Source: Podarcis gaigeae (Eukaryota). From it: a stretch of 64,000 nucleotides of DNA. The stretch lies in the NCBI GenBank assembly GCA_964106915.2, contig OZ066917.1. One strand, 5' to 3'. The notes below the pieces were generated by a model. It was not told where the DNA came from, made no database searches, and worked only from the letters and a program-made list of their open reading frames with translations. Below are positions 308 to 19,480 of this stretch, piece by piece. The translations under genes and the position numbers were made by a program. Position 1 is the first letter of the stretch, and every line of letters starts with the position of its first letter.

Positions 308-3300
308 CTTAAGAATAAGGTTAAACAGGATTTATAATAAATAATAATAATTACCTACTGAAATACCTACAATATATTGGGCTGAATCCAGAGACACCAG
401 AAATTCTGGCAATGGTGCTGTGAGCTGAACAGCACCATGAGTTGTTGAGCAAGATCTAGCAGAAGGCACTTTGTGCAACATCAAACAACAGCTTATGCAA
501 TGACTTGTACAAACAGCAGCACATCTCTGAATTCTCCTCTCTGCTCAGGCAAGGAGCTTCTGCAAAGTCATAAAAAGAGACGTTGTGTTTTTGTGCAAAC
601 ACAACGTTTTTGGATTCAACACAATAAAGTGTAGTCAAATGAACATTCATCAGGATAGAAACAGATCATTTAACTGCTGATACAAAACAAATGGTGTGAA
701 CTTAATTTCTATGTTCATTCATTAGTCGGTCAGTGATCCCCACCCTCCCGCTGCCCCAACAAAATGAATGCAGCCATCCATTCTACTGGGCACAAAAGAA
801 GTACTGAAATATTATAATATGATATTCCAGCATCTAAAGCTAGCTGAATTTAAGCAAAAGAATTAATTTGACTGTTACAAATGACTTGTTTATTAATTTG
901 ACTTGTTACAAATGACTTGTTTATATCTGTTCACTTTTTTCTTTCCTCTTCCATCAAAAGGCCCATCAGAGCCAACAACCTCTGACAAGATCAGGGTTGG
1001 GGCCCACCTCTCCTTCATCGCATGGGAGGGATTCACAAAGAATAGTTGGACTGTTATTTCTAGAGAGTGAATCCTATAGACAAATACAGTCAGTTGTGAA
1101 TGATCTAGGCTAGTCAGAAAGAAGTTCTGGCTAAAATAAACTGGATTATCTTGTTTTTCCATGCATCAGATTTTAGCAGATCTTGAAATCTTAAAGGTTC
1201 AAGAAGCCCAAAGTAGCAGAAGATGGAATTATTAAACACACACACAGAGCAGAAACGCACTGAACATTCAGTGCATGATGGGGCAGAAAGATCACACTTG
1301 AGTACCATCCCACTGCACTTTACATGCTATTTGCTATAATATATAAATGGTGAGTTTCATGACAGTGTATGGTGTCATGGGTAAAGTACTGAACTTAGAA
1401 TGAAGAGATCTGGGTTCTCTTACAACTCACCATGAAGGAAACTGGTGTCCCTGGCCTGCCACTCAGTTTAATCTACTTTTTAAGTTTATAGCCAACCCAC
1501 AGGGAGACACTATATTCTGCCTGAGCTCCTTGGGAGGAGGGGAGACAAAAAGTAATTGATTTCTACATGCACATATATAGCAGATAAGGTGTCACAGCTA
1601 CTGTTCAAAACTAGGGAAGTCCTACATGTCATGGAGGCAATAAGCCAAATCTATGGAAACCAGGGTTATAACAGGTATGTCTGAAGGGAGGCGGGCACAA
1701 TATACATGCATTGGCTTTTATCATTTTGAGCACAGGGTTCAAATGTCACAAAACAAAATCACACAAGTTGGCTTGTACAAATCTGTTTTGTTACCTACTT
1801 GACACTGAGGGCATCTCTTCATCTTCCTTTCCTCCACCAAAGGTTTGAATAAGCTCAGCAAAGTTTGCTCTTCGAGAGAGTAGGTCTTTGTAACTTCCCA
1901 TTTCAGTAATTCTACCATCTTCCATCATGATAACTATATCGGTCTGAGAGAGGATTGCAAGGTTGTGTGTCACTAAAATACGAGTCTTGGGAGAAAGAAA
2001 ACACAACCATGTTTATATTTTACACTGTTAAATAGGAAAATGTTAAAAGTATTAATTCCAAAGACTGAAAAGAAGCATCATTACGTACCTTGTTTTTCAA
2101 TAAGCCTGAGGGCCCAATCACCTTCTCAAAAAGATGCTTCCCAACATGGACATCTACTGCAGATAAGGGATCATCTAATAAATAGAGATCAGCACTGCTG
2201 TAGGCAGCTCTAGCTAGGCTGACTCTCTGTTTCTGGCCCCCACTTATATTCACCCCCTAGGAAAAAATAAGGCCAATACTATTCAAAACCTTTAAAAAAA
2301 CAATAATGTACTTCCCGCCCCAGCCCCAAAATCCTTAATATAACACATTAATATTGATAATATTAAAAAAGAAATACTCTTATCAGTAGAGTATAAAAAC
2401 AAGATTATAAAGTAATTAGAAAATGACCTGTGCTTTGGCCAAGTTTCACTCTTTTACCTGCTGGTGTGTTTAATATTGGGTGGAGAACATGGGGCCCTCC
2501 AGATGCTGTTGAACCACAACTTTCATTAACCCAGCCAGCATGGCCAATGGCCAGGGAAGATGAGTTGTAGTCCAACAATATCTGGAAGGCCACAGATCCC
2601 CTGAATAATATTCACACTGCAGTCCCAAAGGATTTCTGTCAATAGATGTGTTCTTGTAAACATACAGTCATACCTCAGGTTGAAGTAGCTTCAGGTTTAG
2701 CATTTTCGGGTTGCGCTCTGCAGCAACCCGGAAGTAACAGAGCGCGTTACTTCCGGGTTTTGCCGCTCGCACATGCGCAGACGCTCAAAATGACGTCATG
2801 CGCATGCGTGGAAGCGGGTTGTGTTCGCCTCAAGATGCGAACGGAGCTCTGGAATGGATCCCGTTCGCATTCTGCAGGAAGACCTTTTACAGAGTTCTGT
2901 AAACGTTAAGTGACAGTTCTTCATGTAAGAACTGCACAGGGACATGTCTGTCAATGTGAACTTGAACATCTTGCTACATGCCAGTCACTCCACATGGAGT
3001 AATAGTGTCACTAAGTCAGTGCAAAGTCTATTTTCTGTGTTATGTTAAGTACACAATATTACCCCAAACACTCTCAGTCTGCTTTTCCGATTTTATTAAG
3101 GGCGCAGTTTCATCTAGCAATGAACTATCACCATAACCAATAAAGTACAATTTGAAAATGGCTCACACAGATCCCTAATGAAGCCCAACTGTCTTTCTTA
3201 GTACTTTTAAATTTAATCCCTATCCTGAATAAACCGTCCACGCACATGGGCATTTTCACTTACCCTTTCTCCAATTTCTGTTTGATCCCCAGCTGGTAAT

Positions 3301-18991: not shown

Positions 18992-19480
18992 ATCCCCGGC
19001 TGATCCCGCAGGCTCAGCGCCCGTCGTCCCTAGCGCAGCTTCAGCAACAGATGTTTTCCGCTTAGCAGCAGCAGCCCCCCCGGACGACGACTGCATCTAC
19101 AGGCTCGGCTCCTCCGATCGGAAGCGAAAGGAACCAATACAGCCGCCGGCGGCAAATCGGGGGCGGAGCTCCCGAACTCAGTCGCCCGGAGACAGCGTTG
19201 AATAGAAAGGTGAATGGGGAGATGCGCGATTTATCGCCAAAGCAAAAGTCCTGACGTCCACGCCCGCGCGCGTCAGAAGTGATTGCTTCTGATGGCGGGG
19301 GAACAGTACACGCCTTTTCCCTTGCTTCCAAGGCGTTAGGACACAGCCGTGAAGTAAGAGCGAGAGACGGCGATCAGAGATAAAGAAACCTGTGGCACTC
19401 CGGATGTTGCTGGATGATGAGAGTTCGAGTTCACCAAACACCAGGAGGTCCACGGGTTCTTCGCCCCGGACTAGACTAAG
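18760..19480. promoter_or_regulatory. CpG island / promoter of ABCC13
   Basis: High CpG density around exon 1; GC box ggggcggag near 19160; CRE-like tgacgtc near 19252. Confidence 0.8.
18926..18991 (-). CDS. ABCC13: ABCC13 exon 1 ([22 protein letters not shown]); an alternative in-frame ATG lies at 19096
   Basis: Lies in a CpG island. Donor AAG|GTAATT, phase 0, matches exon 2. GSYERLR resembles the recalled human ABCC13 N-terminus (GSYQRVR). Confidence 0.75.

Follow-up and report, generated by a model that had tools for sequence, protein, structure and literature searches.

ABCC13 is treated as a pseudogene in humans, or its zebrafish, dog and macaque copies are noted, in the accessible portions of four papers (PMC2329642, PMC3908370, PMC3655950, PMC3777468). 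The question raised by the locus described here, from the lizard Podarcis gaigeae, is whether ABCC13 is intact in this animal and what such a gene would do. The window, which is the whole 64-kb stretch of DNA that was analyzed, corresponds to C8:61132001-61196000, and 80 kb to its left was also analyzed for the 3′ exons. The original prediction, made from the letters of the window, was an intact ABCC13 with 15 exons between 1799 and 19096.

The longest Podarcis database protein (1329 aa) aligns end to end to the window and about 11 kb leftward, and exon ends were picked among GT/GC-AG sites for the best fit to this protein. The gene lies on the minus strand and is composed of 28 coding exons (3990 nt), 16 within the window and 12 to its left, which encode 1329 aa with a single terminal stop and no internal stop. 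All 28 exons are bounded by GT-AG introns, partly by construction because the boundaries were chosen to fit the database protein. The translation differs from the 1329-aa RefSeq Podarcis protein at 18 aa. No stops, frameshifts, broken splice sites or lost exons were found in the 28 exons. The features are listed below, in window coordinates unless a C8 position is given.

18501..19750, no strand: CpG island over promoter, 5′ UTR and exon 1 (composition)
18926..19096, minus: exon 1, 171 nt (joint 17459/18926 in 4 of 4 runs)
17398..17459, minus: exon 2, 62 nt, start of the L0/lasso linker (protein alignment and contigs)
15529..15670, minus: exon 3, 142 nt, lasso; WxxE (W113/E116), lacertid N97I and D100V
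14748..14902, minus: exon 4, 155 nt, first TMD1 helix; K162, D166
12717..12894, minus: exon 5, 178 nt, TMD1 (alignment and contigs)
11065..11319, minus: exon 6, 255 nt, TMD1; human ABCC13 shifts frame here
9387..9452, minus: exon 7, 66 nt (alignment and contigs)
8308..8445, minus: exon 8, 138 nt (alignment and contigs)
7319..7465, minus: exon 9, 147 nt, end of TMD1 (alignment and contigs)
5388..5472, minus: exon 10, 85 nt (alignment and contigs)
5223..5289, minus: exon 11, 67 nt, start of NBD1, A-loop W479 (alignment and contigs)
3803..3929, minus: exon 12, 127 nt, NBD1 Walker A (K510) (motif, alignment and contigs)
3264..3440, minus: exon 13, 177 nt, NBD1 Q-loop (Q539) (alignment and contigs)
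2089..2256, minus: exon 14, 168 nt, NBD1 signature ISGGQ and Walker B Asp-Asp (D618/D619) (motif, alignment and contigs)
1799..1985, minus: exon 15, 187 nt, NBD1 H-loop (H653) and linker (alignment and contigs)
247..307, minus: exon 16, 61 nt (alignment; joint to exon 15 in 4 of 4 runs)
C8:61131022 down to 61121175, left of the window, minus: exons 17-28, TMD2, NBD2 and stop (alignment)

The 15 exons of the original prediction are retained in their place, in-frame splicing, GT-AG ends and freedom from stops; exon 16 (307-247) had been missed. The length of 2020 nt given for them is obtained when the same exons are counted from the second ATG at 18991, and from the ATG at 19096 the sum is 2125 nt (a difference of 105). 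The CpG-island promoter was correctly called: in 500-bp windows across 18501-19750 the GC content is 0.49-0.60 and the CpG observed/expected ratio is 0.67-1.02, versus 0.25 window-wide. All of the NBD1 motifs and the quoted exon-6 peptide are present. The proposal of an intact gene now extends leftward, where the TMD2 and NBD2 exons were assembled without a stop or frameshift. Two ABC_membrane and two ABC_tran stretches were identified using Pfam on the 1329-aa Podarcis RefSeq protein, and the domain order in the single open frame is lasso-TMD1-NBD1-TMD2-NBD2.

Translation from the ATG at 19096 and from the in-frame ATG at 18991 provides proteins of 1329 and 1294 aa, respectively, and the second ATG lines up with the protein start of the non-lacertid orthologues. 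Positions 18992-19096 correspond to an in-frame N-terminal extension of 35-38 aa with a variable alanine run that is common to the Podarcis, Lacerta and Zootoca records; the ABCC13 records of other lizards begin near the second ATG. The nucleotides at position -3 are T and G for the first and second ATG, respectively. A contig from one related-lizard run spans 18926-19396, to the edge of the stretch compared. A predicted shorter ABCC13 isoform of 1151 aa recurs in lacertids and chicken.

Exon junctions were evaluated using contigs from four of 24 listed runs, none of which is on record as RNA; the four are presumed to be RNA, were judged by their spliced joints and come from four studies of two organisms related to the source. 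Because the boundaries had been fitted to a database protein, the contig joints serve as an independent check of the exon ends. Of the 15 introns in the window, 14 are spliced out of the contigs where predicted; every run shows 12 of these joints, and the other 2 appear in three runs out of four. The joint between exons 8 and 9 is not among the joints listed, and contig depth is equal on both exons in three runs. An extra joint at 6631-8622 (ends AA..CA, one of four runs) was rejected; it sits between repeats. Repeat-derived stretches appear at 10461-11018 (minus), about 5930-6700, about 8500-9100 and 61751-62545 (plus), and their open frames presumably resemble LINE ends. Very high contig depth was observed in introns 7 and 9. 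A processed or second copy of ABCC13 was also sought, and two exon searches of the genome returned one exact locus, with all others at 82% or below.

Constraint was gauged from exon-versus-intron divergence and from branch lengths; the orthologues at hand were proteins. Divergence from three related-lizard runs is 0.9-1.7% for exon pieces and 4.1-4.8% for intron pieces, among the pieces listed (Fisher p from 0.008 to 7e-6 in the three runs). The seven exonic differences listed comprise five synonymous and two conservative changes.

The identity of the gene was addressed using its neighbors, whose coding exons are given here.

29809..29910, minus: first coding exon of RBM11, a synteny marker (best solved-structure match RBM11)
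34643..37795, plus: lipase-family gene, two exons, head-to-head with RBM11 (PF00151, E 1.6e-17 and 1.2e-11)

The exon at 29809-29910 (34 aa), upstream of ABCC13 and on its strand, matches RBM11 with an E of 2.6e-9, ahead of RBM7 at 8.1e-8, and has no Pfam match. The lipase-family gene at 34643-37795 is taken from its position to be LIPI. A convergent HSP70-family gene that contains the ATPase portion only (Pfam positions 1-378) is found downstream of ABCC13 at C8:61112746-61115745; the ESM Atlas assigns it to the HSP70 family, with no vertebrate name among the matches, and we assume that it is HSPA13. ABCC13 thus sits in a block of lipase, RBM11, ABCC13 and HSP70-family genes, and we take the exact order and orientation to be those of the LIPI-RBM11-ABCC13-HSPA13 block. 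The region holding human ABCC13 contains Lipi, Rbm11 and Hspa13 according to the accessible part of one report (PMC3262805). In one source, goose ABCC13 proteins are labeled "splicing regulator RBM11", suggesting that their annotation was merged with that of the neighbor.

Four lizard paralogue loci on other contigs were recovered from two exon searches, and their models were stitched together from tblastn pieces. In the IQ-TREE quick search (27 rows), the lizard gene falls in a 12-row tetrapod clade of full-length proteins with a support of 100. FastTree was run with the human and macaque fragments and without the long-branch rows of Brugia and Centruroides, and a 15-row clade joins the lizard gene to human and macaque ABCC13 with a support of 100. 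The ABCC13 clade is sister to ABCC2 in both trees (support of 97 and 100, respectively), in line with the predicted grouping with ABCC13 rather than within ABCC2. Three of the lizard paralogues pair with fish ABCC2, MRP1 and ABCC3 in the IQ-TREE quick search, and the fourth would be ABCC6. Human ABCC13 records score 1016 and 251 bits against the lizard gene and at most 603 and 130 bits, respectively, against the paralogue models, whose scores are lowered because the models are incomplete. Orthologues are separated from paralogues at 48 columns, 32 of which are covered by the longest human ABCC13 record; the human protein has the lizard state at 26 of these and the paralogue state at 1. The lizard protein is 47.6-50.4% identical to the lizard paralogues and 68.7% identical to a Xenopus orthologue. 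Exon 6 is unbroken (255 nt) in ABCC13 and in the lizard ABCC2 locus, and it is in two pieces in the other three paralogue loci (ABCC1/3/6).

The lizard protein begins at the L0/lasso linker, with residue 60 corresponding to residue 208 of MRP1. Four TMD0 queries against the window gave a best E of 0.033, versus 4e-17 at the lizard ABCC2 locus, and a TMD0 remnant upstream of ABCC13 was rejected as nothing rose above chance. A Kyte-Doolittle scan, which under-calls, found 7 helices in lizard ABCC13 and 14 in fish ABCC2. TMD0 is absent, and a configuration of 12 helices is predicted for the remainder. Judged by sequence, this gene is ABCC13: its neighbors are RBM11 and an HSP70-family gene, its protein falls in a clade with human ABCC13 and lacks TMD0, and the human tail matches its exon 6 in a shifted frame.

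The human-type truncated protein (the Q9NSE7 cluster, with the same tail) leaves the alignment immediately after the GEIINLMSA motif. One shifted reading of lizard exon 6 aligns with the tail of this protein, with 23 of 45 residues identical and a score of 96; the other frames score 17 and 22. Exon 6 is thus the place of the human frameshift, as originally predicted. With the human side compared as protein, the match begins 11 nt further on in lizard exon 6. An 11-bp deletion has reportedly been published for human ABCC13. UniRef models of Cebus, Saimiri, Microcebus and tuatara end in the same shifted-frame tail, which is likely an artifact that arose when the truncated human protein was projected onto these genomes.

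The catalytic residues were compared across 26 orthologues that were hand-picked as near full length among the matches listed. The Walker A lysines, the Walker B residues, the NBD2 Q-loop, H1275 and the NBD2 A-loop tyrosine are identical in all 26, and Q539, H653 and W479 are kept in 25. NBD1 contains D618/D619 and the signature ISGGQ, and NBD2 contains D1243/E1244, H1275 and the signature LSMGQ. These motifs predict one degenerate and one catalytic ATP site, the usual MRP asymmetry.

The residues of the putative substrate pocket were mapped to human MRP1 and MRP2, and Y440, T550, W553, R1197 and R1249 are assumed to be pocket positions of MRP1. The partial text of one report gives K332, H335, L381, F385, F594 and W1246 as substrate contacts of MRP1 (PMC10651738). 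The lizard protein retains the basic side of this pocket (K162, D166, R987, N1035, R1039). Residues on the hydrophobic side are shared within the set of 26 orthologues: Q215 in 23, N270 in 25, M380 in 23, L383 in 24, L424 in 25 and F1036 in 24. Since the hydrophobic half differs from that of MRP1 and MRP2, the substrate range is predicted to differ as well.

ABCC2 is an apical pump. The WxxE motif of exon 3 has its tryptophan in 26 of 26 orthologues and its glutamate in 25 of 26. According to the accessible portion of a report, it directs the apical sorting of CFTR and ABCC4 (PMC10721954). It is also present in the ABCC1 and ABCC3 rows, so the motif is no proof of apical targeting. Taken together with the kinship to ABCC2, it suggests by analogy that ABCC13 may be sorted apically.

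The reading that we consider likely is that the locus is a single intact 28-exon ABCC13 whose product would use ATP to pump anionic conjugates or metabolites out of the cell, probably on the apical side of epithelia. The designation of a working efflux pump is an extrapolation from motifs and conservation. By analogy with MRP1 and MRP2, the substrate would bind in an inward-open cavity via the conserved basic residues K162, R987 and R1039, and ATP would close the two NBDs so that the cavity opens outward. Hydrolysis at the one competent site, formed by E1244 and H1275 of NBD2 with the NBD1 signature, would reset the pump. The other site, with D619 of NBD1 and the degenerate NBD2 signature, would mainly bind ATP. 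No transport, protein or localization data for any ABCC13 were found in the part of the literature covered, the main text of openly accessible papers among those listed.

There are 21 positions at which the lizard protein departs from the consensus of the orthologues. Of these changes, 17 are common to all five other lacertid records, 3 to four of them, and 1 is private. At the position of D100V in the lasso, Asp is present in 26 of 26 other orthologues. The lasso changes F94S, N97I and D100V (15529-15670) are seen in lacertids at positions that are nearly invariant from frogs to birds.

Two alternatives concern the gene itself. A reptile duplicate of ABCC2 or ABCC1, rather than an orthologue of human ABCC13, would account for the database names (MRP1-like, ABCC2-like, ABCC6 or ABCC10) and for the nearly equal scores of solved MRP1 and MRP2 (1324.2 and 1323.8 bits, respectively). 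This explanation is extremely improbable: separate loci with TMD0-region matches on other contigs group with fish ABCC1, ABCC2 and ABCC3, and synteny, the diagnostic columns and the exon-6 frameshift all fit human ABCC13. Identity with ABCC2 or ABCC1 was rejected on the lack of TMD0, the occupation of those clades by other loci, the tree, the synteny and the diagnostic columns. The second alternative is an open frame with a weakened or drifting protein in lacertids, impaired in folding or traffic, so that the gene would have begun to decay as it did in apes and rodents. The 21 consensus departures, including D100V, P659S and E525G, are in its favor. The sole record from Rhineura (a worm lizard) among the matches listed is 289 aa and ends after exon 6, and no snake protein is named among the matches listed (the best 120 of 176, the best 120 of 7962, and 31 of 31). 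Both observations could be loss, or faster divergence together with the reach of the matches listed, among which are many lizard genera. Against drift, private changes occupy 8 of 480 invariant columns, where 12 other lizards range from 2 to 10, and the terminal branch of 0.15 compares with 0.12-0.18 in other lizards. The frames are full length in the Podarcis, Lacerta and Zootoca records and the exons are better conserved than the introns, and we regard such decay as improbable.

Two further readings keep the pump intact and assign it another task. The accessible part of a study of kidney single-cell data describes zebrafish abcc13 as a marker of mature neutrophils, beside alox5ap and hpgd, and gives its function as unknown (PMC11505477); carp ABCC13 is highest in heart in the part of a second paper that could be read (PMC4825979). 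With fish orthology assumed, expression in neutrophils and heart is hard to reconcile with a role confined to gut, liver or kidney. The same pump could then serve mainly to release a lipid mediator or other signal from granulocytes, or from some other cell type outside epithelia, a reading for which the zebrafish marker speaks, on the same assumption of orthology. Of the basic residues with which MRP1 binds LTC4, some are retained (K162 for K332), but the hydrophobic LTC4 contacts L381, F385, F594 and W1246 are Q211, Q215, L424 and F1036 here, and the sister group ABCC2 is an apical pump; we think this role rather unlikely. Another reading, which we hold to be doubtful, is that ABCC13 is devoted to exporting a single endogenous anionic metabolite or mediator; tetrapods would have kept it since the frog-lizard split, and its route would have been lost independently in apes, rodents and perhaps snakes and worm lizards. 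As the pocket residues are fixed in 23-25 of the 26 orthologues, unlike MRP1/2/3, ABCC13 would then define its own transport route, and the lizard and chicken genes would make the substrate findable. The broader reading of an intact exporter of anionic conjugates or metabolites, probably apical, is preferred.

Full-length orthologues were found in birds, turtles, crocodilians and amphibians. To have ABCC13 intact is normal for tetrapods, many mammals included, and the lizard copy is ordinary. Intact copies have been reported for chicken, dog and macaque (Annilo and Dean 2004, as cited in the accessible part of PMC4458048), with zebrafish also among the species already reported in the text available, and the rabbit gene is a coding copy in the portion of another paper that is open (PMC7555810). 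A fish survey table, in the part available, has ABCC13 for zebrafish and carp and for no other fish. Nothing on lizard ABCC13 or its substrate was found among the papers listed (in one listing, 40 of 211 on ABCC13), as covered by the main text of papers free of subscription. The reptile, bird and frog genes are filed as MRP1, ABCC2, ABCC6 or ABCC10, which misleads gene counts. The lizard gene offers a full-length template for the substrate of an orphan human pseudogene, as the chicken, dog and macaque copies already do. The ABCC13-specific pocket residues are the lead most worth keeping; another is that snakes and worm lizards may have lost the gene.

The closest known systems are the lacertid RefSeq proteins called "MRP1-like isoform X1" (XP_077783406.1, XP_053242470.1, CAI5772732.1), which are 1329 aa in length and 98.6-98.8% identical with no gaps. 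The same gene is thus already annotated as protein-coding in close relatives under another name, as the original prediction anticipated for MRP1/MRP2-like labels, and none of the 15 records in the lacertid database cluster is named ABCC13. Identity to the Lacerta and Zootoca records is about 96%, and exon 6 is identical to that of the Podarcis database proteins. Chicken ABCC13 (XP_416677.5, UniRef A0A8V0XVQ9, named ABCC13) is 72.4% identical over 1285 aa, similar in length, open in frame and without TMD0, and the lizard gene falls in the same clade as the bird orthologues. Unlike chicken, the lacertid records have the extension of 35-38 aa if the first ATG is used, and the 21 consensus departures.

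Human ABCC13 (Q9NSE7, AAL99903.1, EAX10058.1) shares the gene neighborhood of the lizard gene and is 59% identical over the first 222 in-frame aa and 66% identical over 745 aa within the longest record. The human product of 274 aa leaves the frame in exon 6, whereas the lizard frame is open to 1329 aa. The lizard protein is about 50% identical to the solved MRPs. ABCC2/MRP2 (PDB 8jx7, 9c12) represents the sister clade with 50% identity and the same asymmetric NBDs; R1257 of MRP2 corresponds to lizard R1039, but W1254 is replaced by F1036, and TMD0 is present in ABCC2 and absent from ABCC13. ABCC1/MRP1 (PDB 8vt4) would have the same core fold, as judged by sequence, and the equivalents of K332 (K162), D336 (D166), N1245 and R1249 are kept. 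The MRP1 residues H335, L381, F385 and Y440 are T165, Q211, Q215 and N270, respectively, in lizard ABCC13, and T550, W553, F594 and W1246 are M380, L383, L424 and F1036. MRP1 has TMD0 and a split exon 6 at the ABCC1 locus, whereas lizard ABCC13 is without TMD0 and its exon 6 is whole.
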